NCBI GenBank assembly: GCA_049999805.1
Contig: JBNGIO010001806.1
Coordinates: 1-47,953 of the forward strand
From: Folioceros fuciformis
Lineage: Eukaryota
Reading direction: 5' to 3'
DNA: 47,953 bases
The translations under genes and the position numbers were made by a program. Under the pieces are notes generated by a model that worked only from the letters and a program-made list of their open reading frames with translations, had not been told where the DNA came from and did no database searches. How positions within the stretch are numbered: position 1 is the stretch's first letter; the number at the start of each line of letters is the position of its first letter. Shown here in pieces: positions 5,503 to 45,855 of this stretch.

Positions 5503-6345
5503 ATGGCGGCTTCGTGGAGGTGCGTGCGGCAGTTGCTGGGAAGAATTGCATCTCGGCCAGCAGCTGCACAATCTCCGGGGAATGGAAGAGCTGTCACAAG
5601 CTTAGCAGGAGCAATACATCACCAGAGGGTTCTGAAATCTGGCTCCACGGCATCAGACACGTGTTCCTTGTGGTCAGAGTCCAGGGGTTCTTCTGCCCGA
5701 TGGCGTCCTCATGCCGCGCATTGCAGGGGTATGTTCATTCAAACGGAGACAACTCCCAACCCGTTGTCCTTGATGTTTCATCCAGGAAAGCCAGTGATGG
5801 AAGTCGGGAGTGCGGATTTCCCAAATGCTCGTGTGGCTGTGACATCGCCGCTTGCCAAGGCTTTGTTCAGAATAGATGGAGTGATGCGAGTGTTCTTCGG
5901 CTCGAATTTTGTGACTGTGACCAAGGCTGAGGAACAGCCGTGGGAGATTCTAAAGCCAGAGATCTTTGCAGCAATCATGGATTTCTACTCAACGGGCGAG
6001 CCCTTGTTTACAGATGCGCAGACTCTGGCTGCTTCGGACACTGCCATACATGAAGATGACGATGAGACCGTGGCCATGATCAAGGAGTTGCTGGAGACCA
6101 GGATCCGCCCTGCTGTGCAGGATGATGGCGGGGACATCGAGTACCGGGGCTTTGATCCTGAATCAGGGATAGTAACCTTAAAGATGCAAGGCGCTTGTAG
6201 CGGATGTCCCAGCTCCGCCGTAACCCTGAAGTCCGGCATTGAGAATATGCTGATGCATTATGTGACAGAGGTGAAAGGCGTGAAGGAAGCAGTTGACTCT
6301 GACGATGAAGACGAGGGAGGCGCTGTGGAAGGGCAATCCAGATGA
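5503..6345 (+). CDS. NFU4: Mitochondrial NifU-like Fe-S cluster carrier (NFU4/NFU5-like), single coding exon
   Basis: Arg/Ser-rich presequence, [11 protein letters not shown] Nfu_N domain, [12 protein letters not shown] and the [11 protein letters not shown] CxxC motif. Confidence 0.95.
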
Positions 6346-8141
6346 ATGGCAATGCCCTCGTACGAGTTCTCGTTCACCTTTCGACTTCACTTTTGCTACA
6401 GGTAGTCGTATCATCTGGTGCTGGTCAGATATCAACTTGGTTTAGCTTTCACAAGTATAGGGGTGCTACGTGTGGTGAGCCTATGCTTTGTCGGTCGTCA
6501 ATCTTGTAACGCTCTAATTATCATTCGCTTGGATCGAGGAGCTGTAGGTAGTGACTCCGGTATGGACCACTTGGACGGTTCATTAGGTTGCATACGTGTC
6601 CACGGAGCAGAGGGAAACTCGCCGGCTATTTCACAACAACTCTCTGCTTTCATAGCCTCGCGTCCGAGCTTTCACGGTCGGTTCCTGCTAGAATGATTCC
6701 GGTCCAGTACATGTACAAAAGGGCAGGTGGCCAGGACACGTCATTCTGGTTGTCAGACACGGACGTGGAGAGTGCTTCTGTGTGGCCTCGCAGGGAGAGA
6801 GTTCATAGGCAGCAGACAATCCAGTACGGACTCTGGAAGACACCGAATTGCGGCAGAAAATTACAAAGTAATACTGTATGTACATGCAGTCCATGCTTCC
6901 AAGGATGTAGGTGTTTCTTGGTGCAGGCCTCACTCATGTCGCCTTCTAATTACATATTCACATGCGGAGGACGTTTGGCCAGTACGGTCGCACCATCGTG
7001 GGCCTGGGCAGCAGGACAAATCGGAGAGCCCTAAAAGATCTGCCATGTCAGGAATATGGTTTGTGGATGTGGTTTTCTCGCAGCAACGGAATTATCTGTG
7101 AAGAACAGGAACCCGGCATCACAGCCGGTGCACACTTCAAACTTGTGGATACCTACCGGTTCGAACAGGTTGTGGACCTTGTGGTGCAGCGAGTGCCGTC
7201 CTTGCTGCGCACTTGAGGACGGCTTTGTCGGTCTCGTCATGGTGTGAGGATGAATCTGGGAAGGCGCCTGGACCAACCACCTGGCAATCGTTGTCGCTCG
7301 ACAATGTTGTTAGGAAGCGGCTTTCAAGTTACCCAGCCTGTAACTAGTCTGTTCAATTCACTGGTGGGGCATGGCTGGAGGACACTCCGTTCTGCACGAA
7401 GGTGGTGCTGACTCGTTTGGGTGATAGCTGAGACGCTAATATCTAGAGTCCTGGAGAAGCCATTGTAGTGACCTAAAAACGGGCAGTCTCGCTTCCGAGA
7501 TGAAAGAAGCGAATGGTTGCCCCACTCCACACAATCGAATCCGTGCAACGCTTTGTGAGGTCTGGTTATCAGGATGGCGTTGGACTAGCTACTACCTCCG
7601 TGATCAGTAAACCTTGCAGTCATGGACATTTTCCAGTCATCCATACTTCGTCGACCCTACATTGAGGAGTTGGCAAGCCAATCCAGTGAGTCAGCCGCAA
7701 CTGGTGAGGTAGGATCTGATTCCGGCGACGACCAAGAGGAGTACTTGGGCCTCCTTCACTTTACTTGCCGTAGCAGGGCCACTCTCATATGTGGCGCCAA
7801 GTCGGAATGAGGCCTCCCTTGGCTTCCGCCTCGGCTTCGTACGCACGTATCGGTCTGCACATCAACCACCTGTGCCGAGGCTCCTACGTAGCCCCCTTCC
7901 TCACCTGCTGAAAGCAAGGCGTACAAAACGCCATGCCATAGCCTGGTTTCAGTGGACAGTCCGAGCATTCGGCACGGGCTCGGCGTGACTCGTTCCCGGC
8001 AGAGCCTTCCTTCAAGACCGTCTGGACTTGCGTTTTGAGTAGCTGACGATTTCCTGTAGGGGGGATAGCCTTGTTGAGCGATTTGGTCCGCGATTTGGTC
8101 CGCGATTTGGGCGATTGTGAGTGAGTGTGGGAGGAGTCGCC

Positions 8142-10397
8142 ATGGGCGAGACGTCCAGCACGGACGTAGAGAGTGGGCGAGTGGGAGGAAAGCACCAGTC
8201 CCTGGGCTCCCGCCGGCGGAATTCTTATGGAGAGCTGTCGAGCCCCCTCCTGGGCAAGGGGGGTGAATCTGTGAGCAAACTGTCCTGGAGGAACTGTCTG
8301 TGCAACCAGAAAAACCTGGCGGTGATTGCAGGGCCGACACTGGCCATTTGCAGCATCTCCCTGTCGCGAATCCTCAATGTGCATCTGCCCCCGGAGTTGG
8401 CTGCCCAGAACATTAAGATCTGGTCGATGCTTGGAGCCGCAATCTGGATCTGCTTCTGGTGGCTGACGGGGGCGGTTCCCGTGGCCATCACTGCGCTCAT
8501 CCCGCTCTTCCTGTTCCCCCTCTTAGACATTCGGGATTGCGACACCGTGGCCAAAGTGTACATGAACGACACCATCGCGCTCTTCCTCGGTTCCTTCATC
8601 ATGGCCTTGGCTGTGGAGCACCACAACGTGCACAAGCGCCTGGCGCTCAAAATTCTGCTTCTCTTCGGGGGCAAGAACATGGACCCTCACTTTCTCCTCC
8701 TTGGCTTCTGCGTCGGCCCCGCGTTTGTGAGCATGTGGATTTCCAACACCGCAGCTGCCGTCATGATGGTTCCCATGGCCCTGGGCGTGGCGCGCAAGGT
8801 GAAGCAAGGCGCATCGCACAACAACCACACGTCCACTGAGACCGATTTCAAAGAGGGTGAGCAGCAGCAGCAACAGCAAAACCAGGAGTCCGACTTCATT
8901 GTGCCTGGCGAGACGCCTGAGCCTCTCCTGCTCTACTGCCGGGGGCTGATGCTTGCCATCGCCTACGCTGTGGCCATCGGAGGCCTGTCCACGCTCACGG
9001 GAACCGGGCCCAATTTGATTCTTGGGGGAATGTGGAAGAGCATGTTTCCCGAGGCTGCGCCGATCACCTATTTGCAGTGGTTTCTGTTTGCATTCCCTCT
9101 AGGCCTCATCTACCTCCTCATCCTGTGGCTTCTGCTGATCTGGTGGTACTGCCCCGAGCCCACGGCCACTCTTGTCTCGGCTTCCTTACATCGGTCTGTC
9201 ATCGAACAAGAGTACAATAATCTCGGTAAGTAACTCCTGTCCTCCATCTGGTCTCCAATCGCATCAGGCACCCATTGATTGCGCTAATCGAAACGATCTC
9301 GCGTGCAGGCCCGATCTCCTTCGCAGAAAAGACTGTTCTCTCTTCGTTCACGGTAAACTGCCCCATCTTTCTCTCTAAGCTGTGAAATCTTGTCTCTGTT
9401 ATTGCGAGCTCAGGGAAGGAAATGTGACTTAGCTGACACTGGGTTGCACAGGTTCTCGCTCTTCTGTGGATAACGAGGTCTGTTGGTGATTATGGATGGG
9501 GAAACTACTTCAACGGCCTCGCTGGCGATGGCACTGTCAGTGTAAGCAATTCAAGGCCCTCTTCTTTCGTCCATGAAAGAAAGAAGTCCACCACCACCTC
9601 TGGAACCTCAATCTCAAGTGAACGTTCCATCTTGCAGATTATGGTGGCAATTGTGCTGTTCATGATACCTGACTGCAAATCCCAAGGGGATAAGCTCATG
9701 AACTGGAAATTGTGCAAGAACTTGCCATGGGACATCGTTCTCCTCCTCGGCGGAGGTACCATAGAACTCTGGCGCGCAAGGCGCTCTGCAAACATGTATA
9801 CGTAATTTCCCACTCACCCGTTCTCGTTTCCCGCAGGTTTTGCTTTGGCAGATGGAATTCAGGCCAGCGGTCTGGCAGACTGGGTGACAGCGCGTCTCCA
9901 ATTTCTGGACTCGCTGCCATATCTGGTGATCGCACCCGTGGTGGCGGTGCTAGTCACCTTCCTCACCCAGTTCACATCCAACAACTCCGCCGCCACCATC
10001 TTCCTTCCCCTTCTGGCTCAGGTGGCCATATCTATGCATGCCAACCCACTGCTCTTCATGATTCCAGCTACCTTGGGAGCCTCCTTCGCCTTCACGCTAC
10101 CCATTTCAACGCCACCCAACGCCATAGCGTTCTCCACTGGATTGGTGCCGATGAAGGACATGGCTCGGTTCGGACTGGTTTTGATCCCCGTCGGGCTCCT
10201 CCTCATCGCCGTCGGCATTCCCACTTTAGGTCAGTAATTCTGTTTCGGTCGTGTCGCAATAGAGACCCTTTCCACTGTTCTTACGCTGACTGTTGAGCTG
10301 GATTGCAGGGAGCAAAGTTTTCGGGCTCTCGTCATCACCTTTCATTTCAGTTCCACAATGGAGCACAGCATTCTCCGTGCACCAGTTTATGGATTGA
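8142..10397 (+). CDS. TDT: Tonoplast dicarboxylate transporter (SLC13/DASS family), 6 predicted exons
   Basis: Predicted exons 8142-9225, 9309-9352, 9452-9541, 9638-9755, 9837-10229 and 10309-10397 have GT-AG ends and consistent phases. Motifs [24 protein letters not shown] and [10 protein letters not shown]. Confidence 0.93.
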
Positions 10398-27857: not shown

Positions 27858-29323
27858 ATGGCAGATCATTTCAAGCTGTGGAAGGCAGCGGATGTGGCCT
27901 TAGGCAAGCCCGCCGTTCCGCACTTTCCGCTCACCGCCTCGGTTGCGGATGCCATCAGGGCGCTCCAGCAGATCAGCGATGGCCGGATCAGCGTCTGGGA
28001 ATGCCGCGGCGCCGCTCACCTGCGGCGGCCACCGCCACTCAAAGTGAAGGATTATTCTGAAGCCGGAGCTACAGTAACTGCGCACGACGCCTGCAGGAAG
28101 TGGGAGGAGACCGAGGGGCCTCTCAGCCTCGGCCAGCACCAGTGTAGATGTGTGGGGATTCTAACCAAGGTGGACATTCTGTGCCATCTGGCCGAGGATT
28201 GGCAGCATCGAGATCGGGCCTTGCGCACCTGCGTGTCGGAATTGCTGCCTCCTTTCTCCTCCGCGGTGGCTCATGTTGATGGTAAATCCAGGTGAGTCGG
28301 TCACGATTTCGGTGCCTGTGTTGCTCTCTTGGCGTCGGAGAATGTTTGGACTCAAAACGTTGTGGTGACAAGTGTACTTGTGTTTGTGGATTTGGGTGAT
28401 TCGACAGATTGCTAGATGCGCTCTCTTCCATGGCGGATCTCGGGGCGCATCACCTGGTGCTGCGGATGGAGGAAAGCCGCCTCCACGCCAGAATAAGCTC
28501 CATTTTTCGCCACTCCTCCAAGCCTACTCGTGCTACGTCCGGCTCGTGCCAGCTCTACTGCTGTTTGACCCAGGAGGACGTTCTCCGCTTCCTGCTGGGA
28601 TTCATTACCCGGGTGGCCAACGCACCGCTGATGACAGTGGAGGAGCTGGGGATCATCGACACCAATTTCCAGAGGATCAGTGCCACGGCACCTGCGGTTT
28701 CGGTCCTGAACTTGATCAAGGCAGCCAGCCAGGAGATGACGTCCGTGGCGGTCGTGGAGGAGCTGTCTTACCCTGACTACCTGTCAGGGGAGGAGGTGAG
28801 CGGAGTGCGGCTCATGGGAGACCTGTCTGCCTTCTCCATGCGGAACTGCGACGAGACTGGAGCGGAGGCGCTTGCCACACTCTCTGTGAAGGAGTTTCTG
28901 GATTTTGCCGGAGGGGACTTGACAGCATTGCTGCGGGCGAGGAGGCAGATGTCAGGCGGCCACGGGCTCGCTTCTTCCCTTCCTGCAGGCTGGGAGGAAT
29001 CATCGTCGGAAGACGAGTCATCCGGGCTGCCGTCCCCAACAGGGCCTCTCCGGGTCTCGTTCGACAGGATACCCCATCGCCCATGGCAGCTCTTCTCCAC
29101 GCAGTCGGGAATCCAGGCTCGGGTTGCTCCCATTACCTGCCGCCCCCAGAGCACGCTGGTGGCAGTCATGGCTCAGGCTCTTGCCAACAGGGTGACCTAC
29201 TTGTGGGTGACAGATGATAACGACATGCTCATCGGCCTCGTCACTTTCAGAAGCATCATCGGAGTTCTGGTGCACAATCTGGAGACCCTGGAGTTCCTGG
29301 AGACTGAAGGAGGTACTGAATAA
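27858..29323 (+). CDS. CBSX5: CBS-domain protein, CBSX5-like, 2 exons
   Basis: Exons 27858-28291 and 28408-29323 (phase-2 GT-AG intron). Motifs DVALGKP, SVADAIRAL, CRCVGILTKVDILCHL, CCLTQEDVLRFLLG and TCRPQSTLVAVMAQALANRVTYLWV. Confidence 0.85.
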
Positions 29324-36210: not shown

Positions 36211-39200
36211 CTACAAGACGTTAATGATCTGTGCATTCAGCTCCTCCAGCGTCGTAATAATGCTTTCATTTCCCCGTCGCTTGTTCTTGTCTTTCACGGA
36301 AAACATAAGCACCCTCTCCCTGTGCTCGATCCAACTTTGCCCGGGCCTTTTCCTTCCACCTGCACCCCGTCTCATACGCTCTACTTGTCTGGCTTCCTCT
36401 GGCAGGCCGCTGAGGGCATATATGTTGGACATCAGGATATACGCAGCACTCTGTTTCGGTTCCAGTTCCACAGCAAGGTTGAAAGCACGCCTTCCTGACT
36501 CCATGTCGCCATGCTTCCTACAAGCACCGAGTAAAGACAGCCACATTGCAACATCAGGCTGCACTGGCATTGTCAACAGCAACGTTTCTGCCTGCTTCAG
36601 GAGTCCTGCTCGTCCAAGAAGGTCAATGACACAGGAGTAGTGCTGCCTCACTGCAGCAATTCTGTAGTCTCTGCTCATGGACATGAAGTACTGCAGGCCT
36701 TTTTCCACAGTGCCGGCATGACTGCACGCCGTGAAGAGACACACAAATGTGATTGCGTCTGGTCGTATGCCTGCGTCCTGCATTTGTTTGAAACATTGCA
36801 AGCTTCTTGTATAGTCTCCGTGCCGCGCATATCCCGAAATTAGTCCATTCCAGGCCACCACATCTTGCGTGGACAGTGTGTCAAATAACTGCTGAGCTTT
36901 AACCATCCGCCCGCATTTTCCGTAGGCATGTATGAGAGCAGTTGCCACCAGCACACTGTTCTCCATTCCGTTTTGTATCATATCATGCCGGATGTCGGTG
37001 CACATTCTCAAAGCTCCAACATTGCCGCAAGCTCTTAAGATGCAAAGAAATGTTGCCTCACTCAGTTTCACGCCCTCCCGTTTCATTCGCAGGTAAAGTT
37101 GGAGGGCTTTCAACTCTAGCTCTTGCTCAATGTAAGCGCCCATCATCGAATTCCAAGATACCACATCACGCCCCGGATGTGTGTCAAACACTTTCCGCGC
37201 ATCCACGACGCTGCCACATTTTGCGTACATGTTGATGAGACTGTTGCAAACAAACGTGTCTGATGCATAGCCTCTTCGACAGATCTCTGCATGCAATAGT
37301 GCACCCTTTTGTAGAGCATCTGCTTTCACTGTGTAGCCATCAACAATCTCGCCCTTCTCCATAGCTGCCAAGCTGCCGCATGCTTTTAGAGTGGCCACAT
37401 AGGTCCGACTATCAGGCAGAACACCCGCAGCTTGCATACCTGCAAAAGCTTGCAAAGCCCTGTCACCCTCTTCTTGTTCAGCATAACCAGCAATCATGGC
37501 ATTCCAGGAAACGACATCACGATCAGACAATGAGTCAAACACATGCCTGGCATCCTCAAGGCTCCCGCATTTAGCATACGTGTGAACAAGCGTGTTGCAG
37601 ACCATCCTGTGTGATCCATAGCCCTGACGAATTAGTTCTGCATGGATGGCTTTCCCCATCTGCAAAGCCCGTGATTTCACACGCTGACCGTTAGTAAAGG
37701 TGCACTCCTCCATATTTGCAGCAACTGCACATGCTTTCAGGGCACCCACAAATGTTCGACTGTCAGGTGTCACACCTTTCTGCTGCATTTGAACGTAAAG
37801 TTGCAAACCATCCTCACCTTGTTCTTGCTCAGCATATCCTGAGAGCATCGCATTCCATGACACCACATCACGTATCGACAATCTGTCAAAAACCTGCTGC
37901 GCGTCTGATACACTTCCACATTTGGAGTACATGTGGACAAGGGTGTTTCCAATGAAGACATCCAATTCATAGCTCCTTTCAACAGCTTCGGCATGGATTG
38001 CCTTTATCGCGTGCAGACACAGCACTTTGACAGGACGCCCTTCAACTAATGTCCAACGTTCAATGCTTGCCATCCCACTGCATGCCTTCAGCATACTCAC
38101 AAAAATCCTCTCATCTGGACTTACGCCTGCATCTTGCATTTGGATATATAACTTTAGAGCCTCGTCACTTAGTTCATGTTCAGCATACACTCCAAACATT
38201 ACATTCCATGCTATCAAATCACGCTGACTCATCAGGTTGAACACATATCTCGCATCTTGAATGCTCCCACATTTCGCATACATATGAACAAGGGCGTTTC
38301 CGATAAAAACATCTGATCCAAAACCTGCTTTACATATTTTCTCATGAATAGTCTTACCCCTCGCCAACGACTGAGTTTTGATTGGTCTCTCAAACATCAG
38401 CATTCCTTCCTCGTTAGCGACAACGCAGGCACATGCTTTTAGTACACTCGCAAAAATCCATTTGTTTTCGATTTCACCTTCTGCCTGCATTCGTGCATAG
38501 AGTGACAAAGCCTCCTCCCCTAGTTCTTGCTGGACGTATCCTAATATCATTGTATTCCACGACACCACATCCCTCTTATCCAATCTGTCAAAGACAGACT
38601 GTGCCTCCACCATGCTCCCACATTTGGCATACATGTCAACCAAAGCAGTGCCCACGAAAAAGTCCAACTCACATCTAGTTTTGGCAGCTTCTGCGTGGAT
38701 CTGTCTGCCTTCGTGTATCGCAGTAAAACTTGCACAGGCTTTCAATATGCTGGCAAGCGTATACTTGTTTGGCTTTACACCTTCCTCCTTCATTTTGTGG
38801 TACAAATCAAGGGCCTCTCGATCTCGTTCCTCCTTCACATATGATGATATCAACTCCGTCCATGCGGAGACTTTGCGCACGGGCAATCTGTGAAAAACTT
38901 GCAAGGCTTCTGAAAGACTCCCGCACTTCACAAGCATGATGACGATAGAGTTGCCCAGGTAGACATTCGATTCCAGCCCCTTGTTGGAAATGAAGCCATG
39001 CAGGAGATTGGCTTCCCTGATGGCCTTCTTCCTACTACAAGCTTGCAAGAGACACTCATAAGTTTCCATGGAGATCTGAGTGCCTTGCTCGTCCATCCAG
39101 TGCAGAGAAGTAAATGCCTCCTCCAGTCTTCCCTCCTCACACAGTTTCTTCAACTCTCCATCCTTGCACTGTACACTGCAGACAGAAAGCCGTTTAGAAC

Positions 39201-39984
39201 GCTCATTACCATGTAACTAACCATTCGTTGCACCAGACGTCAATATTTGTTTCTATCACTCATTTTACCAATACCGCATACTTGTTGATTTTCAGATCAC
39301 CTAGCTTTGTTGCGACCCAAGCAGGTGTGAAATGACTGCTGATACAAAGGGCACCATTCTTGGTCTTGTGTCGAAAGTCTGGTTGCTGGGGATTTTTCTG
39401 TTCAGAAGACAGTGAGGCTTAAAAGTAATGTTTCTAAAAGTTACACCGCGATCCACCTGCAGCAACTGATTGTCAGCAAAGCGTAAAACACATACCTTGT
39501 TCAGCCTATTGTCCCACCATAGGGAAGGATCTTTAAAGAATTCTTGCCAAAGGAGCTCCTGCCTCTCCTTTTTCTTTGCTTCGCTGTATGCCTTAAAGCC
39601 TACACGAAAGCGGCTACTGGCATAAGCACAATCACCAGTGAGTAAAGGTTTTGATCGAAACAGTCACGTGAGAGTCTCACCTGCAGCAGGAGATTCGGAG
39701 TCGTGTCCTTGTTCTACGACCTGTAGCTCTTGTCCTATCCAGGCGGACCTCCCTTCAATGTGCATCCTCAAATGTTCGTTCCCTACCTGATGAAGCAGAT
39801 CAGGCTTGGTGGAAGATGTCTGCAGACTCCAAGCTTTCAACTCCCTTGAGCTGGCCCCCGTTATGGTGCCGTAGAACCCACCTCCAGCAGTGTTTTGACC
39901 CATAACTGCTGCAATCATCTCAACTTCATGACCCAGTCCGGCAGAATTCAAGGAAACCTTTCCGCAGCAGCTTGCCACTATCAT
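36211..39984 (-). CDS. PLS-class PPR protein, E+ type (PG box, truncated DYW), with long-L motifs and an intron-split N-terminal PDF motif; start codon uncertain
   Basis: The main exon (about 39175-36211) has P-L-S triplets, E1/E2 and KRPGQSWIE, then a stop before any HxE motif. Upstream phase-compatible exons end at 39681, span 39599-39496 (ELLWQEFFKDPSLWWDNRLNK) and span 39397 to about 39280 (KNPQQPDFRHKTKNGALCISSHFTPAWV). Confidence 0.88.
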
Positions 39985-41274
39985 CCGCTCGAATGCTACC
40001 CAGTTTTTGCAACTGTCGACATAATGGAGGGCACCAACGTCCTTGGCAGATTCTAGGAGTTGGTGAAGTTGGTGATGTTAGTGAATGCTCTGGCTCTGTC
40101 TGCGGCGAGATATCGTGCTTACCATTCTCCATGGTGAGAAGCATGATGCCTCTCCGAATTTCTAGCTTATGCCAGGGCTCGCTGGCCAGTTGGGACTCCC
40201 GGGCATCAAGCTAGCCTATCTCCAGGTGCTGGATCCTACCAGCCTGTTGCTCCAGATTACCGCGTCCCTGTCATTGTTCAGGGCCACTATAGCTATGCTC
40301 CCAACAGATCACGAGCTCCTGAGCTTCATGCAGTGCGATTGCTGCATCACTCTCTCACCATGTGTTGAGCTAACCGTTCAGGGCTGGGACGTTCGGAGTG
40401 CTCTCATACATGCTCCGAACGACTGCTGCAATCCCCTTTTACGATGTTTGCCATCTTTGGTGAAACTGATTTCGGATGTGTGGGATCAGAATGTGGGTCT
40501 CCGCCTGCTGCATCTTGTCATCTATGTGAGCCAACAATCAGAAAAGTACGGTGTGAAGACAAGGAGGAGGGAGGGTGCTGAGAAAGAAGCCTCCTAAAAG
40601 ATTCTGTGATGTAAGCAAATGAGAACTGCTTGGAATCCGTGACTACTCCGTGGCGTACGAGGAATAGCTCGATGGGGCTGCCTGCCGTTTTACTTCCAGA
40701 TAATTCTGCAAATATTTGCAAACAAAGGCTTCCTCAAAACCTGTTCGGCACCATTCAAGCCAAAACGGCCTGGACCTATCTAGGATGCAACGATGAAATG
40801 CATGTAGTAGATAGCCAAGGGCTGAATAAGATGGCTGGACGAAATGCATCCCTGGACGGCCGACATTATCGAATATCATTTCATCGGAAAGCCTAAAGGA
40901 CCTAGAAAGAAAGCTGCAACCATCTCAAATCAGATCCGGCGTATCATGCGATTTAGCAAGAGGGACGTCCAGCCATCCCGATGTCAGGCACAAGGCTTCC
41001 AAGGAGGCGCGGTGGCTGCATAACCAAGACATGCCCGCGGTGGATGGGTGGCCCTCGGGCAGGAGGCTGGTGCTCGAAAACGACGCTTTTCCGCATGAGG
41101 TCTTCCAAAGCCAACGTGTAGTGTACAAGATGATGAAGCTACATCGAGACGTGTACGTTTGTTCACTTAGAGCAGGTTCTGTATGCAGGATATCAGCTGG
41201 ATGCCGTTCAATCGCATTTCGTCTCATTCCAGCACCGAGATAGATTTCAATGGCCATGCCGGGAAACTGCTGAA

Positions 41275-44130
41275 TTAGTGGCGATCTCCACACGAGCACG
41301 ACCCCTGTACAAAACGATGCACAGAATGTGCATCTCTAACCGTGATCTCTCGTTTTTCCACACGTGACAAAACCTTCGTGCTACTATGGCAATCACTGCA
41401 CATGAGGAGATTCTTTGTGACCAGCAACGGTGTGCCTTCGGGTGTATTGAGTAGACCATACGCCAGTGCTAGCTTCTCAGCATGCCCACAAAGGGCATCT
41501 TCCTTCTCCTTTTCTGATACTGCCCTGAGCACTAATTCTGTTCGGGGAGTATGCCCTTCCTCCTTCAATCTCAAATTCACGCTCGTCAGTTTCGAAGAGA
41601 TGTCATTCCTCTTTTCCCCTACCGTAAACTCGTGCACCTTGTCCCTCACTTCAATGGTGGCTTTAGCTGGCTTCTTCTTAGCCCCTGCAGACTTCCTCAT
41701 GTTTTCTAGTCTCTCCACCTCTCCCCATCGCCCACAATTTGCATACATACTACCCAACATCACATACGCAGCTGCATTTTCAGGTTCCACAGCTATCACA
41801 CGACCAAAACACCTGCCTGCACGCTCTATGTCGCCATGGCTTTTGCAGGCACTCAGCAAAGATGTCCATCCCACTATAGCCCTCTCGGAAGGCAGGGTCT
41901 GCAAAATTTTCTCCGCCTCATCCAAACGGCCTGAGCGCCCAAGCAGATCCACCATGCAATGGTAGTGGTCCAATTCGGGCGTGATGCCATGCTCCTGCTC
42001 CATTTTTTCAAAATACTGCTCTCCCTCAGCTACAAGACCCTCGCGACTACAGGCTACTAGAAGGCAAATGAAGGTTGCTTTGTTGGGCTGCACTCCTTGC
42101 TGTTGCATTTCTTGGAAACACGTCACTGCTTGGCTGCCATCGTTACACTGGCCGTAGCCATTGATCATGACATTCCACGTGACCACATCCCTTTTGGGCA
42201 TCCTGTCAAAAACCTCACGAGCATCCACCAAACTCCCACATTTCGCATACATATCCACAAGGCAGTTGGAGACAACCACATGACCTTCGTGGCAGCTTTC
42301 CTTTATCTGTGCATGCAGTTGCTTTCCCTGCTGCAAAGCTCCAACTGTTGCACAAGCTTTTAAGAGGCAGGTAAAGGTAAAGTGATCAGCTGGTGTCATG
42401 CCCTCCTGTTGCATCCTTGTATGAAGGGCTAGAGCTTCTAGACCCAGCCCTTGCTGAACATAGCCGTTGATCATGCTTGTCCATGTCAGCACATCTCTGG
42501 TGGGCATTTCATTAAACACTTGTAGAGCATCACCTACGCTTCCGCATTTGGCATACATGTTGATGAGGCAATTACCAACTACCAGACCAGGTTCAAAGCC
42601 TCTGTCCTTAATCTGCGCATGGATTAGCTTGCCCTGAACCAAATCCCCTACGCTGCCACATGCCTTGAGGAGGCAAGCAAATGTGAACTGATTGGCTGAA
42701 GTAACGCCGTCATCTCCCATTCTTGCATACACAGCAAGGGCTTCCTGACCCAGTCCTTCCTGTACGTAACCGTTGATCATGGCAGTCCATGTCACCACAT
42801 TCTTTGAAGGCAACCTATCAAAAATTCTACGAGCTTCCTCTAAGCTCCCACATTTAGCAAACATGTCCACCAGACAACTGCCAACGAGCACATCAGCCTC
42901 AAGTCCCAGTTTCTGAATTCGCGCATGAAGTTGCTTCCCCTGTTGCAAAGCTCTCTCGCTCCCACATGCTTTCAATAGACACACAAATGTGGCTTGCTCA
43001 ACTAGGCTTATGCCCTGCTGCTCCATGTTCGCGTACAGAGCAAGCGCCTTCTTACTAAATCCTTGGCGCACATATCCATTCATCATGACATTCCATGTTA
43101 CTACAGTTCTTGAGGACATCCCATCGAATACACGGCGAGCATCTTGTAGGCTCCCACATTTCGCATACATATCGACGAGACAGCTCAAAACGTACTCATC
43201 GGGTTCCTCTTCACCGTTCAGAATGTCATCATGCACCTCCTTACCGGAAGCCAAATCTACTGCAGCAATGCATGCTTTTAGGACTGCCACAAATATTCGA
43301 TTATCTGCCTTCCCCTTTACCCTCCGCATAAGCCCGTAGAGCTTGATTGCCTGTTTGGGCTGTCCGTGCCTAGCATGCGCAAAAATTATGGACGCCCACA
43401 TTTGGTTGCTAGGCTGAGACAGCTTGTAGAAAACCTGACCCGCTTCTGCCAACCTCCCATGCGAAGCGTACATGCATATAACATGGTTGGCCAAGAACGC
43501 GTTTGACTCATAGCCGCATTTCACAAGAAGGGCGTGGACACGGCTGCCGAGAGCTAGATCCTTGTGAGCAATGCACCTCTTCAAGAGGCGGTAAAAAAAG
43601 GAATTGTCGATATGCGATCCTCTCTCCACGAGGAGCTCCAGGCCTCGCACAGTCTCATCGAGCTTCCCGTCCTCCAATAACGTGCTCCAATTCTCCAAGC
43701 TCAGGCTCAGCGCATCCGAGCCTGGAAGAGATGGCCTTCCAGAAGCGGAGGTGGAAGCCATTTGCGTTCCCAACTGCACATCCAAAATGGCGAGCCGGGA
43801 ATCCACCCAAGCAGGCTTGTACTTGCTGTTGAGCCATAGGACCTCCTTGGACCTCTTGTGCCTGAAGTCGGGATGGCGGGGACTTGTCTTGTCCTGCCTT
43901 CTGTCCCACCACTGCGTAGGATCCGCGAAGACGTCCTGCCAGAGGAGCTCCATCCGCCCCGGCTGAGCGGCCCCTTCATCGCCGCTATCACACTGCAACG
44001 GGCCAGTAAGCTTGGCTGGTGGGCGGCTCCAGGTCGCCACCTGTTGCATGTGGGAATCATTCGGGGAGGTAGTCGGTTGCTCGCCCACCACGTTCTTAAC
44101 AGGCTGCAGGAAGCTGAGTGACAGAGCCAT
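41275..44130 (-). CDS. PLS-class PPR protein with DYW:KP (KPAxA/DRH) deaminase domain and N-terminal PDF motif, single exon; alternative ATG at 44307
   Basis: P-L-S arrays, E1/E2, KKPAKATIEV, HAEKLA, KNLLMCSDCH and terminal CSCGDRH. N-terminal LWQDVFADPTQWWDRRQDKTSPRHPDFRHKRSKEVLWL. Confidence 0.93.
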   Translation of the reverse strand: MALSLSFLQPVKNVVGEQPTTSPNDSHMQQVATWSRPPAKLTGPLQCDSGDEGAAQPGRMELLWQDVFADPTQWWDRRQDKTSPRHPDFRHKRSKEVLWLNSKYKPAWVDSRLAILDVQLGTQMASTSASGRPSLPGSDALSLSLENWSTLLEDGKLDETVRGLELLVERGSHIDNSFFYRLLKRCIAHKDLALGSRVHALLVKCGYESNAFLANHVICMYASHGRLAEAGQVFYKLSQPSNQMWASIIFAHARHGQPKQAIKLYGLMRRVKGKADNRIFVAVLKACIAAVDLASGKEVHDDILNGEEEPDEYVLSCLVDMYAKCGSLQDARRVFDGMSSRTVVTWNVMMNGYVRQGFSKKALALYANMEQQGISLVEQATFVCLLKACGSERALQQGKQLHARIQKLGLEADVLVGSCLVDMFAKCGSLEEARRIFDRLPSKNVVTWTAMINGYVQEGLGQEALAVYARMGDDGVTSANQFTFACLLKACGSVGDLVQGKLIHAQIKDRGFEPGLVVGNCLINMYAKCGSVGDALQVFNEMPTRDVLTWTSMINGYVQQGLGLEALALHTRMQQEGMTPADHFTFTCLLKACATVGALQQGKQLHAQIKESCHEGHVVVSNCLVDMYAKCGSLVDAREVFDRMPKRDVVTWNVMINGYGQCNDGSQAVTCFQEMQQQGVQPNKATFICLLVACSREGLVAEGEQYFEKMEQEHGITPELDHYHCMVDLLGRSGRLDEAEKILQTLPSERAIVGWTSLLSACKSHGDIERAGRCFGRVIAVEPENAAAYVMLGSMYANCGRWGEVERLENMRKSAGAKKKPAKATIEVRDKVHEFTVGEKRNDISSKLTSVNLRLKEEGHTPRTELVLRAVSEKEKEDALCGHAEKLALAYGLLNTPEGTPLLVTKNLLMCSDCHSSTKVLSRVEKREITVRDAHSVHRFVQGSCSCGDRH

Positions 44131-44488
44131 CAGTGCAGCCAGACGCTGTGGTTGCCAGTGCGCTGTACAAAGCGTAGGAGTAGACACATGCGCATTATCC
44201 GGTGGCCAGAGGAAGTGAGGGCAATGCTTGAGGTAACTGTCGCAAAAGGAAAGTGAGTATGTTTGTTTGGATTTTCGTGTCACAGTTTCCGACTGGAAAA
44301 GGAACATCGAACGCCGACGTGGTGAAGCGCCTACTCGACACACACTTGTCACTCGTCTGTGTGAGCAAGTCCAACCCTCGAATGGCGGAGTAGCGAGTAA
44401 ACTCGGACGGCTCCACAGGTGAGACAGCAGATTTGCCTTGTGCCTGGTCTTGTTGGCTTTCCCTGCTTGTTGTTACCTGGTGCCCCTG

Positions 44489-45855
44489 ATGGTTGCGCAT
44501 CGACATCCACAGAACAAGGAAGAGAGTGCTGCTGCCGAACAGCAGGATCGAGAGAAGGAAAAACGGAAGGGCCGTCCTGGCAGAAGGAAGCCTGGAGAAG
44601 GTTGGTAGAGGCTAGTGTTGTGCATGCTGATGTCGATTCAGGTCCTGGCTGCTGACAGCTTTGGAGGCTGGCGGGACAGATGACGAGGGGCAGGGGGCAG
44701 GTCCAGGAGAGGAGTCTGAGGAAGAGCTTGAGAAGAAGGCTTGGGCGGCGCCGAGACGGGGGAGGAAGCGATGCTCTGTGGCTGCCAGGTCCCAGCATTC
44801 AATTGACGAGGGCGCAAGTGAAGCAGAGAACAGTGATGATGAGAAATGTGGAGAAACGACATCATGCAGAGGCAAAGCTGTAGGTCGCCGGACTCGGACT
44901 GCCGAGAAGCATGGTGAGCATGAGGCTCAAGGTCGCAGCTCCAGGGTAAAGAAAGCGTCCTCAGTTTCCAGGTCTGCAACTGAAAACGAAGATGGAGAAG
45001 ATGCAGCTACAAACGTCGCACTTGCGGACAAGGTTCTCGACACACACCCTGAAGAACGTGCTACTGGGCATAAGGCCAAGACGAGTAAGATGGAGGAGGC
45101 AAAGTCAGACGATGAGGAGGATGACGGGGAGAAGGATAGTATTTCAGAGGGTGATGCTGGGGGATCGGAATCGGATGAGGACGCAGAAGAGCATCCGCCT
45201 GATGAAGTCTGGGCGACCAAGTCAGCAGTGCTACTGCTGTGGGTTGCAGTGGTTGCGGAAAGGGAGGGCTCCACGTTTGAGGAAGGGCTGACCTACGGAC
45301 GGGCCATAGCTGCGTTGCTTGCACGCGCCAAGCTGCGGAAATTCGGTGTGATGCGGCTCCCTCGGAATTTCGGCTTGGGCTTGGGGGGAATGGGCAGGGT
45401 GAATGCGGAGCGGCGGAGGCGAGAAGGCGAGGAGATCGGGCAGGTGGACGTATTCGGTGGGAAGAGGGTGTTCGTGAAGTACGCGGATGGCTTACGTCTG
45501 GCTGCTGATCCTACAGGCAGGATCGTTGCTCCGGACGAAGTAAAAGAGTATCTGCGGAGGCAGTTTGGCAAGCACTTGGATGAGGTGAAAGGTAAGCGCA
45601 CCTATCCTCACGCCTTTCAAGTGTGAATTACAAGTGCAAGCGCCTTGTGTATCTCTCACTGTCTTGGTTGCAGAGGCCATGGAGAGACTTGCAAGAGCAT
45701 ACGCCAAGGAAAAGATCGGTAATGTGGCCTACAGTCATTACCAGAAATTCAGACCGCAGGTTCCCGATGACCTAAAAGGCTTTAGATGTAGAGGCTCCCT
45801 TCACCTGAGCAACCTTTTGGACTTCGCCGTGGATGCTGAGCACAATTCTGCATAA
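44489..45855 (+). CDS. Acidic, disordered N-terminus plus an uncharacterised conserved C-terminal domain; 3 predicted exons
   Basis: Exons 44489-44600, 44659-45591 and 45674-45855 have matching phase-1 GT-AG introns. Motifs AVLLLWVAVVAEREG, EEGLTYGRAIA, VKEYLRRQFG, EAMERLA and AYSHYQKFRPQVP. Confidence 0.75.

Follow-up and report, generated by a model that had tools for sequence, protein, structure and literature searches.

A PDF motif lies in frame with a PPR tract, an E motif and a DYW domain

The window, meaning the whole 47,953-nucleotide stretch of Folioceros fuciformis DNA analysed here, carries on its minus strand an open frame of 1025 codons that runs without interruption through positions 41275-44352. 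The features encoded in this frame, together with a second gene of related composition, are collected in Table 1. A preliminary description of the same DNA had picked out a peptide resembling the PDF motif of plant OSB proteins, and this peptide is found letter for letter in the minus-strand translation of 41275-44352; the plus strand over the same interval encodes an unrelated peptide. The motif itself runs from 43950 to 43792, so that the interval originally given, 43790-43955, brackets it. The same frame goes on to encode PLS-type PPR repeats, then an E motif and a DYW domain; the coupling of the motif to a PPR tract and an editing domain had been proposed from the letters.

Table 1. Features of the PDF-PPR locus and of the neighbouring gene (positions in the window; residue numbers refer to the 1025-codon frame unless stated otherwise).
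Feature	Position	Strand	Remarks
PDF-PPR-E-DYW:KP protein, probable CDS	41275..44130	(-)	ATG at 44130, stop 41277-41275, intron-free
N-terminal 59 residues, presumed organelle presequence	43954..44130	(-)	predicted disordered, pLDDT <50 (model residues 1-54)
PDF motif	43792..43950	(-)	residues 135-187; OSB-only HMM 67.8 bits; AF2 pLDDT 93.7
Ser/Gly/Pro-rich flexible linker, PDF motif to PPR tract	43714..43761	(-)	pLDDT <50, model residues 124-139 = frame residues 198-213
PLS-type PPR tract	41848..43698	(-)	about residues 219-835; Pfam PPR 6.4e-82, 12 stretches; PPR_2 1e-73
E motif	41650..41838	(-)	residues 839-901; Pfam PF20431, 1.1e-12
DYW:KP-type domain, 133 residues	41278..41676	(-)	residues 893-1025; Pfam DYW_deaminase 1.6e-31
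Second PDF-PPR gene	36211..39602	(-)	E motif, PG box, no full DYW domain; 1.9 kb downstream

In-frame ATG codons are present at 44307, 44130, 44049 and 43953, and the frame remains open above the probable start codon, as far as 44352. With translation from the ATG at 44130, the motif is preceded by 59 residues, and PPR helices first appear about 30 residues beyond it, which agrees with the earlier placement of the motif between a targeting region and the PPR array. The 59 residues are presumed to be an organelle presequence and may serve in targeting. A contig of 2013 letters from sequencing run X1 is identical to the window and covers 42229-44241 in one unbroken piece. The same run includes the spliced form of the neighbouring gene (see below), which indicates that it is at least partly RNA-derived. 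Contigs from relatives also cross the PDF motif (X17, 42776-44133; X3, 43144-44155); the evidence from the runs, X1-X22, extends to what their contigs cover or join.

The DYW domain carries the sequence marks of the DYW:KP class

The protein has the tandem PPR repeats, the E motif and the HxE...CxxC DYW domain of PLS-class PPR-E-DYW proteins. Its DYW domain opens with KKPAKATIEV, in which a KKPAKA box replaces the PG box; the name KP refers to the Lys-Pro of the altered PG box. The zinc-binding signature reads HAE (GHAEK) and not HSE, and the CxxC element is CSDCH. If the lysine of VTK is numbered 88, residue 92 is a methionine, and the domain, counted from the KKPAKA box to its end, is 133 residues long. 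The protein terminates in GDRH, which contains the DRH triplet, the hornwort variant. Canonical relatives in our sample have a Pro-Gly box together with HSE.

Published accounts of DYW:KP domains list an altered PG box, HAE, Lys88/Met92 and a length of 132-133 residues (PMC9478123, PMC11845758), with DRH and GRP named as variants (PMC9478123). Each of the KP marks tested here was found (HAE, Lys88, Met92, 133 residues and the DRH end), and the earlier assignment of the domain to this class stands. By these marks the window protein is a putative U-to-C editing factor. For DRH-type domains the direction of the reaction is itself only putative, since the designer proteins reported to show U-to-C activity were KP2, KP3 and KP6, and KP1, which is mainly DRH-based, was not among the active ones (PMC9478123).

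The motif is an authentic OSB-type PDF motif

By its published definition the PDF motif spans ~50 residues and bears a conserved Pro-Asp-Phe signature (review PMC6963530). In the window copy Pro-Asp-Phe occupies motif positions 30-32, and 14 of 14 invariant columns are retained in an alignment of 14 sequences that includes both OSB-type and PPR-linked motifs. We built a hidden Markov model from 80 PDF motifs of 25 proteins named OSB1, OSB2 or OSB3 by their sources, leaving out all PPR-linked motifs and the window's own copy. This OSB-only model matched residues 136-192 of the window protein over HMM positions 6-61 with a score of 67.8 bits (independent E 2.7e-20), and the best of 1000 shuffled versions of the motif reached 10.6 bits. 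The match lies far above the chance level, and the claim that the motif is of OSB type is thereby confirmed. When the whole window was scanned in six frames, the model found two sites only, one in the 43950-43792 region and a second, split site at 39567-39496 and 39403-39284.

Database searches gave a consistent picture. A phmmer search with a 64-residue stretch against 1.84 billion representatives returned 704 proteins at E<=0.001, of which 212 were at E<=1e-10. A word-indexed search with the single motif yielded 4 candidates only; a profile made from 14 motifs was used instead, and it retrieved proteins named OSB1, OSB2 or OSB3 that bear PF00436. Pfam assigned no family to the PDF motif alone, the sole match being CTK3_C at E 0.17, below its cut-off. 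Pfam holds no model of the motif, which means that surveys based on domain libraries would miss it, and the description of the motif as lying outside the canonical PLS-E-DYW architecture is upheld. We have high confidence in the identity of the PDF motif and in its in-frame position within the protein.

The PDF motif is predicted to fold as a separate unit

AF2 folded the motif on its own with a pLDDT of 93.7 into a helix, strands and a second helix. In a 346-residue AlphaFold model, the presequence and the linker have pLDDT values below 50 and the PDF motif and PPR helices values above 90, with PPR helix pairs present from model residue 145 onward. The predicted picture is that of a small, confident fold on a disordered tether, and on these models the PDF domain is a separately folding unit. 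In the relative represented by run X17, an in-frame deletion of 6 letters occurs at 43699, just downstream of the linker.

Searches for a related fold gave no solved analogue from which a mode of binding could be argued: the motif profile had 0 matches at E<=1 among PDB sequences, and of the 9 PDB matches that Foldseek listed at E<=10 the best had E 5.9, so that none reached E<=0.001. The best matches in the ESM Atlas were phage gp49-like clusters with scores of 0.78-0.82, which are below a meaningful level and were taken as chance.

A second PDF-PPR gene lies next to the first

The split site found in the six-frame scan belongs to the second gene, in which the PDF motif is interrupted by an intron of 98 bases (39398-39495). 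Contigs from X1, X2, X3 and X17 skip exactly this interval, which has GT..AG ends on the minus strand. Another intron lies at 39176-39281, and further exons extend upstream to at least 39882. Once the exons are joined, they read through in a single open frame, and the OSB-only model gives the restored motif 62.2 bits. The two genes are not recent duplicates of each other, as their identity is 38% over 707 aligned residues.

PDF-PPR fusions recur in non-seed plants and are not specific to reverse editors

The PDF-PPR fusion is not unique to the window. PDF and PPR occurred together in 62 of the 380 proteins that we collected; such fusions account for 14 among the 150 representatives listed and for 22 among the 120 profile matches listed. 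The named sources are Calypogeia, Sphagnum, Diphasiastrum and Adiantum, all of them non-seed plants, in a sampling that cannot show absence from seed plants. Across liverworts, mosses, lycophytes and ferns, the added motif is a common feature of editing-type proteins. The proteins have been deposited as "hypothetical" or merely as "PPR-containing". In homologues from annotated genomes, the PDF motif follows 20-140 N-terminal residues and stands ahead of the PPR tract. Arrays of 2-4 PDF motifs are also found (e.g. P0003, P0192-P0196 and P0203).

A special association between the PDF motif and reverse editing, as implied in the preliminary description, is not supported by these data. PDF motifs occur on E-type, E+-type and canonical DYW:PG proteins, and the neighbouring gene has a PG box. 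Among 15 sampled HAE-type (KP-like) proteins only 2 have the motif; the 13 that lack a match may include some N-terminally cut gene models. The fusion is therefore not KP-specific. In the close relatives P0288 and P0338 the motif is reduced to degenerate remnants. Judged from these sequences and from the 13 HAE-type absences, the motif is dispensable for the family.

Our literature search found no report of a PDF-PPR fusion, which does not exclude an earlier mention. One review covers the PDF motif and pentatricopeptide proteins, each separately; the Anthoceros genome paper contains none of the terms "OSB", "single-stranded" and "DYW"; and "single-stranded" does not occur in the available main text of the PMC13386178 survey.

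PPR-linked PDF motifs cluster together and conserve the core

In a tree of PDF motifs, 81 of 82 PPR-linked instances fell within one clade of 86 members (support 84), and the remaining 5 members of this clade are fragments of 89-164 residues. The tree required 6 changes of label, compared with a mean of 78 and a minimum of 73 for shuffled labels. With 40 PPR-linked and 70 other motifs, a tree constrained to a single PPR-linked clade lay 13.4 log-likelihood units above the free tree with a p-AU of 0.644, where a p-AU above 0.05 is no proof of a clade and the motif tree comprises 64 columns, with many rows that are paralogues from one lycophyte. A single origin of the PPR-linked motifs is thus not rejected by the sequences.

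The core of the motif is strongly conserved. W7, P14, W17, D19, R21, K24, P30, D31, F32, L41, W42, P49 and W51 are each conserved at 96-100% in the 82 PPR-linked motifs, at least as well as in 560 other motifs. PPR-linked motifs also have a signature of their own at columns 10, 12-13, 15-16 and 57, and a loop that is two residues longer at columns 46-47.

A proposed role in single-strand binding, and the alternatives

We propose that the gene at this locus is nuclear and specifies a DYW:KP (DRH) editing factor from the PLS class of PPR proteins, whose N-terminus would bear one intact PDF domain, the ~50-residue module credited with ssDNA binding in OSB proteins. The predicted domain (helix, small sheet, helix) would follow a disordered presequence and be carried on a disordered linker of ~16 residues before the first PPR repeat. 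The domain belongs to a distinct PDF subfamily that probably goes back to a single fusion with a PLS-PPR gene at an early stage of land-plant evolution, after which individual PPR genes in liverworts, mosses, lycophytes, ferns and Folioceros fuciformis would have retained the domain, multiplied it to 2-4 copies or lost it. The PDF domain may add a sequence-independent affinity for single strands at the 5' flank of the PPR footprint, so that the editing factor would become locally more concentrated on organelle transcripts that are unpaired, or at the displaced DNA strand or nucleoid of their synthesis; the PPR tract would continue to supply the specificity, and the DYW domain the catalysis. 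We give this explanation as a whole a probability of about 0.55. The single-strand binding mechanism, taken as a separate component, is put forward tentatively, at slightly under even odds.

Which partner the domain would bind bears directly on the first alternative. In AtOSB1 the PDF motif reportedly suffices to bind ssDNA (review PMC6963530), and for recombinant OSB1 and OSB2 a preference for ssDNA over dsDNA or RNA is reported (review PMC4166229). These preferences favour a role on the DNA side over the RNA-unfolding activity considered in the preliminary description, and they imply that assistance in binding RNA is not the first activity to be expected. The PDF domain might be a tether to ssDNA or the nucleoid that parks the editor on transcription bubbles, R-loops or replication intermediates, leading to co-transcriptional editing, which was the first role suggested in the preliminary description. 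PPR-linked motifs conserve the core residues as well as OSB motifs do, and with a flexible linker the domain could stay anchored to DNA while the PPR tract is bound to RNA. The signature of the PPR-linked subfamily, however, may reflect a changed ligand. We consider the tether unlikely as a distinct explanation; it is a special case of our proposal in which the partner is DNA instead of RNA.

A broader evolutionary reading would make the PDF-PPR architecture ancestral to the editosomes of land plants, through one early fusion that supplied the PDF domain as a general single-strand cofactor; this would have become dispensable and been lost in the seed-plant lineage as separate MORF helpers arose. 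If true, the domain would be a cofactor in bryophytes, lycophytes and ferns for C-to-U and U-to-C enzymes alike. This scenario seems to us distinctly improbable.

The PDF domain could also be a protein-protein module that, instead of binding nucleic acid, recruits partners or lets editors self-associate into an editosome where plants have no MORF proteins. MORF proteins are reported to be exclusive to seed plants (PMC13386178) and the named PDF-PPR proteins come from non-seed plants, so that the known distributions of the two are complementary. The same pattern would fit the replacement of MORF helpers considered in the preliminary description. Arrays of 2-4 motifs would suit avidity of either kind. 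Against this idea, the only activity reported for the PDF motif is ssDNA binding, and Trp, Phe, Arg and Lys abound in the conserved core. Surfaces of such composition are typical of nucleic-acid faces. We regard a protein-binding module as very unlikely.

Gene duplication alone might account for the presence of the motif, which would then be an evolutionary passenger, fused once, carried along with the PPR genes and contributing nothing to function in this gene. Massive expansion of the PPR family by duplication is reported in early-diverging land plants (PMC13386178), and the loss or degeneration of the motif in P0288 and P0338, with its absence from 13 of 15 HAE-type proteins, fits such a history. 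The conservation described above argues otherwise: the window copy has kept each of the 14 invariant columns, the core is 96-100% conserved in 82 PPR-linked motifs from several plant lineages, and both tandem genes retain the motif despite only 38% identity in the PPR region, the neighbour doing so across an intron with its frame open. The chance of a mere passenger in this gene appears slim.

That the motif is no part of the working protein, because translation starts downstream of it or because it is removed with the transit peptide at import, is scarcely credible: any of the four in-frame ATGs could be the start, but all 4 are upstream of the motif (the last directly precedes it), contigs cover the motif and PPR region in one piece, annotated-genome homologues place it after 20-140 residues and before the PPR tract, and a predicted folded domain of 60 residues with a pLDDT of 93.7 is unlike a transit peptide.

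Comparison with OSB proteins, DYW:KP editors and MORF helpers

The window protein shares with OSB proteins the ~50-residue PDF motif, with its core of invariant Trp, Pro, Asp, Arg, Lys and Pro-Asp-Phe, and organelle targeting is presumed for both. The arrangement is different, as the window protein has an N-terminal PDF motif followed by PPR, E and DYW and has no SSB domain; a Pfam search of the 1025-residue protein at E<=1 gave no match to PF00436 (SSB). The bona fide relatives P0035 and P0039, in comparison, have an SSB domain (39 and 53 bits against a cut-off of 26), with their PDF motifs placed C-terminally after it. The PPR-linked motifs moreover form a separate subfamily. With a PDF motif present and no SSB-like OB-fold, the window protein has a domain in common with OSBs and is itself no OSB.

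With the DRH subgroup of DYW:KP proteins, the hornwort candidate U-to-C factors on which the designer KP1 is modelled, the likeness extends over the PLS tract, the E motif and the 133-residue DYW domain, including the altered PG box, HAE, Lys88, Met92, CxxC and terminal DRH. The difference lies at the N-terminus: the available text of the published descriptions mentions no PDF motif in this position, and most of the sampled KP-like relatives are without one. The MORF/RIP helpers of seed plants offer a possible functional analogy only, as accessory parts that support PPR editors. They have no relation to the PDF domain in sequence or fold, and they act on PPR proteins by binding them as independent polypeptides, in contrast to the PDF domain, which is fused in cis. 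A precedent for fusing a nucleic-acid-binding or helper domain to a PPR protein is provided by the RRM-PPR and MORF-P motif fusions reported in PMC13386178.

PDF-PPR fusions bear on the question of how the editors of non-seed plants manage without MORF-type helpers, and on the way in which U-to-C enzymes locate and retain their substrates. They also widen the reach of the PDF domain beyond DNA maintenance. DYW:KP domains are under development as programmable U-to-C editors. The PDF domain, a putative binder of single-stranded nucleic acid that is conserved, predicted to fold separately and fused to dozens of natural editing factors, is a candidate accessory part.

Results

The preliminary description had placed a PDF motif of the OSB (Organellar Single-stranded DNA Binding) type at 43790-43955, fused to a putative U-to-C (DYW:KP) RNA editing enzyme. 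This interval lies within the longest open frame in that part of the window (1025 codons; Table), and the described peptide was recovered exactly in the minus-strand frame, as residues 135-187 (window 43950-43792), while plus-strand translation of the interval gives an unrelated peptide. No Pfam family matched the motif region of the protein, because Pfam holds no model of the PDF motif.

A phmmer search of 1.84 billion representatives with the 64-residue stretch retrieved 704 proteins at E<=0.001; 212 of these reached E<=1e-10 and 22 reached E<=1e-30. Many carry multiple copies (maximum 13). With a profile built on one motif from each of 14 proteins, 1228 of 8000 scored proteins matched at E<=0.001; OSB1 mitochondrial, OSB2 chloroplastic and OSB3 (NCBI or UniRef names) were frequent among the 120 profile matches listed, and PF00436 was often present. 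Direct scanning of two related proteins, P0035 and P0039, detected an SSB domain (39 and 53 bits, cut-off 26) followed by C-terminal PDF motifs, which is the OSB architecture according to the available text of three reviews (PMC6963530, PMC13393729, PMC4166229). An HMM was built from 80 motifs of 25 OSB-named proteins; neither the window's own copy nor any PPR-linked motif went into it. Against this HMM the focal protein scored 67.8 bits (independent E 2.7e-20) and 1000 shuffles reached at most 10.6, confirming the identity of the motif. The SSB domain of OSBs was not found in a Pfam scan of the 1025-residue frame; judged by its domain content, the focal protein has one domain in common with OSBs and is not itself an OSB.

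At the other end of the protein, DYW:KP domains are described as differing from canonical DYW:PG domains in the PG box, in the final triplet and in the HxE signature, which reads HAE in KP; Met92 is typical, and DRH and GRP variants occur in hornworts (available text of PMC9478123); Lys88 is conserved and essential in domains of 132-133 residues (available text of PMC11845758). The focal domain starts KKPAKATIEV, carries HAE, comprises 133 residues, ends in DRH, which suggests a hornwort source, and has Met at position 92 when the Lys of VTK is position 88. Every sequence mark taken from these papers (PG-box change, HAE, Lys88, Met92, length, DRH) is present. U-to-C activity was shown by three designer proteins, the mainly DRH-based designer not being among them (same portion of PMC9478123).

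Features of the window around the PDF-PPR genes
Feature	Position	Strand	Residues	Remarks
Focal frame	41275-44352	-	1025 codons	PDF motif, PPR tract, E motif, DYW:KP-type domain
In-frame ATGs, focal frame	44307, 44130, 44049, 43953	-		ATG 43953 immediately before motif
PPR repeats, focal protein		-		12 stretches; Pfam 6.4e-82
E motif, focal protein		-	839-901	Pfam
DYW deaminase domain, focal protein		-	933-1023	Pfam 1.6e-31
Neighbour gene, second PDF-PPR	36211-39882	-		E type, PG box, without full DYW domain
PPR frame of neighbour	36211-39153	-		long open frame
Intron of neighbour	39398-39495	-		98 bases, GT..AG ends
Frame upstream of focal gene	44661-45626	+	321 codons	acidic, Ser/Gly-rich, divergent; no Pfam family at E<=0.001
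Nfu/NifU scaffold protein	5503-6345	+		ordinary nuclear gene or exon; Pfam 1.3e-29
Na/sulfate-citrate transporter family	8121-9233	+		ordinary nuclear gene or exon; Pfam 1.1e-30
CBS domain	28409-29323	+		ordinary nuclear gene or exon; Pfam 1.5e-06

AlphaFold2, run on the 14-motif alignment, predicted a confident motif fold (pLDDT 93.7, pTM 0.77) with a helix at 2-12, short strands at 17-19 and 32-34, and a helix at 51-63. In a longer model (frame residues 75-420, 17 aligned sequences), the N-terminus (model residues 1-54) falls below pLDDT 50 and is disordered; the motif and the PPR helix pairs each exceed 90 and are separated by a disordered linker (model residues 124-139). No solved analogue of the motif was found by sequence search or Foldseek.

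The motif was also found in contigs of sequencing runs, none of them catalogued as RNA. In run X1, 0.92 of sampled words were present and all eight listed pieces were identical to the window; since one of its contigs carries the spliced neighbour gene, the run is at least partly RNA-derived. An X1 contig of 2013 letters (42229-44241) runs through the start of the PPR tract and the motif and continues 291 bases further upstream, where it includes ATG 44130. Contigs of relatives cross the motif in X17 (42776-44133) and in X3 (43144-44155). The X17 sequence lacks 6 letters at 43699 without loss of frame, and at 44061/44066 one letter is lost and one gained, five bases apart. The run contigs spanning the region gave no sign of a start downstream of the motif, although contigs cannot reveal transcript ends.

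A six-frame search of the window located Pro-Asp-Phe once more at ~39382, again on the minus strand and upstream of another long PPR frame (Table). This neighbour's motif is interrupted after the conserved Lys by an intron that the focal gene lacks at this site. The intron is skipped exactly in contigs of four runs, X1 (identical to the window) and the relatives X2, X3 and X17, and exons joined by coordinates form a single open frame, in which the OSB-only HMM gives the motif 62.2 bits. Over 707 aligned residues the two proteins share only 38% identity, which rules out a recent duplication of the tandem genes. Low-depth X1 contigs also occur in the spacer (40214-41116), overlapping the focal 3′ end and the neighbour's 5′ exon region; they could stem from read-through or long UTRs, or the run could contain DNA.

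PDF-PPR proteins were not confined to this contig. The motif was N-terminal to a PPR tract in 14 of 150 representatives listed by phmmer, and PPR Pfam families occurred on 22 of the 120 profile matches listed (21 from Diphasiastrum complanatum), none of them a seed-plant-named entry. Similarity searches collected 380 proteins, 271 with a PDF match and 62 with both PDF and PPR (isoforms and the focal protein included), with 1 to 4 PDF copies per PDF-PPR protein. Named sources were Calypogeia fissa (liverwort), Sphagnum species (moss), D. complanatum (lycophyte) and Adiantum capillus-veneris (fern). Of the PDF-PPR proteins that also had a DYW match, 2 belonged to the DRH type (P0311 and the focal protein) and 10 were canonical, with endings such as DYW or DSW, and only 2 of 15 HAE-type proteins had a PDF match; these proportions are indicative only, as the samples were drawn by similarity search and some models are N-terminally cut. 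A Sphagnum protein, P0091, is a complete PDF-PPR-E-E+-DYW protein. Two close relatives of the focal protein, P0288 and P0338, retain a degenerate remnant in which the motif start is recognisable and the Pro-Asp-Phe part is gone, showing at the sequence level that loss is ongoing within the subfamily. In P0203 (D. complanatum, 1362 aa), PDF motifs at residues 94-201 recur at 633-739, within the PPR region; two tandem PDF-PPR genes may have been merged in one gene model.

We extracted 671 motif instances (647 distinct) for a FastTree phylogeny, in which one clade of 86 tips (support 84) holds 81 of 82 PPR-linked instances. This tree requires 6 changes of the PPR label, whereas 200 shuffles averaged 78 and never required fewer than 73. 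Fragments of 89-164 residues account for the 5 non-PPR members of the clade, and two of these continue into PPR-like sequence. A random draw of 40 PPR-linked and 70 other motifs, with the five fragments excluded, gave 3 label changes in IQ-TREE (shuffled mean 32.9; 0 of 500 shuffles as low). Because the tree holding the 40 PPR-linked motifs together lies 13.4 log-likelihood units above the free tree (p-AU 0.644), a single origin gives the best tree obtained and is compatible with the test, though not proven with 64 columns and many lycophyte paralogues. PPR-linked motifs share distinctive residues at columns 10, 12-13, 15-16 and 57, and two additional residues lengthen their loop at columns 46-47. 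On a reduced tree, the single C-terminal motif of an OSB-like protein, P0125 (Ginkgo biloba, 364 aa), is near the focal motif by path length, possibly pointing to the type of OSB motif that gave rise to the PPR-linked subfamily.

Discussion

Conservation and the AlphaFold2 models together show a PDF domain, predicted to be folded and constrained as in OSBs, that is flexibly tethered to the N-terminal end of the PPR tract. A PPR tract and its RNA run in parallel: the N-terminal repeats contact the 5′ nucleotides, and the DYW domain works immediately 3′ of the footprint. The PDF domain would contact single-stranded nucleic acid upstream of this footprint, or nearby nucleoid DNA, and such contact could add sequence-independent affinity or a localisation signal. 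Both RNA and DNA are possible partners, since the available text of two reviews states that the motif suffices for ssDNA binding (PMC6963530) and that OSB1 and OSB2 bind ssDNA in preference to RNA (PMC4166229). A protein-interaction role for the domain appears unlikely. We consider it similarly improbable that the motif is a neutral passenger; its core residues are kept at 96-100% in PPR-linked motifs, a level no lower than in 560 other motifs. That it is removed before the protein works is a very improbable reading.

The proposed fusion of a PDF motif to an editing enzyme thus stands as an observation, with the identity of both protein ends supported, while a special tie to U-to-C editing is not supported, given the 10 canonical PDF-PPR-DYW proteins and the few HAE-type carriers. 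The PDF motif emerges as a widespread accessory domain at the N-terminus of non-seed-plant PLS-PPR proteins, apparently undescribed within the literature searched. In full-text searches of one literature library, no link between the PDF motif and PPR proteins came up. The term 'single-stranded' is absent from the available main text of a 2026 kingdom-wide survey of editing-factor domain fusions (PMC13386178), and the Anthoceros genome paper contains no mention of OSB or DYW. PDF-PPR proteins are already public, deposited as hypothetical or PPR-containing.

Two further proteins carry the motif in other settings. P0006 (Kingdonia uniflora, 1160 aa) has a weak match to SSB near its C-terminal part and 13 PDF stretches, far above the up to five motifs reported for OSBs in the available text of PMC13393729. 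A kinesin motor domain (Pfam 1.8e-86) follows three PDF motifs (residues 188-394) in P0048 (Coptis chinensis, 1526 aa), which is either a further type of PDF fusion or the product of a merged gene model.
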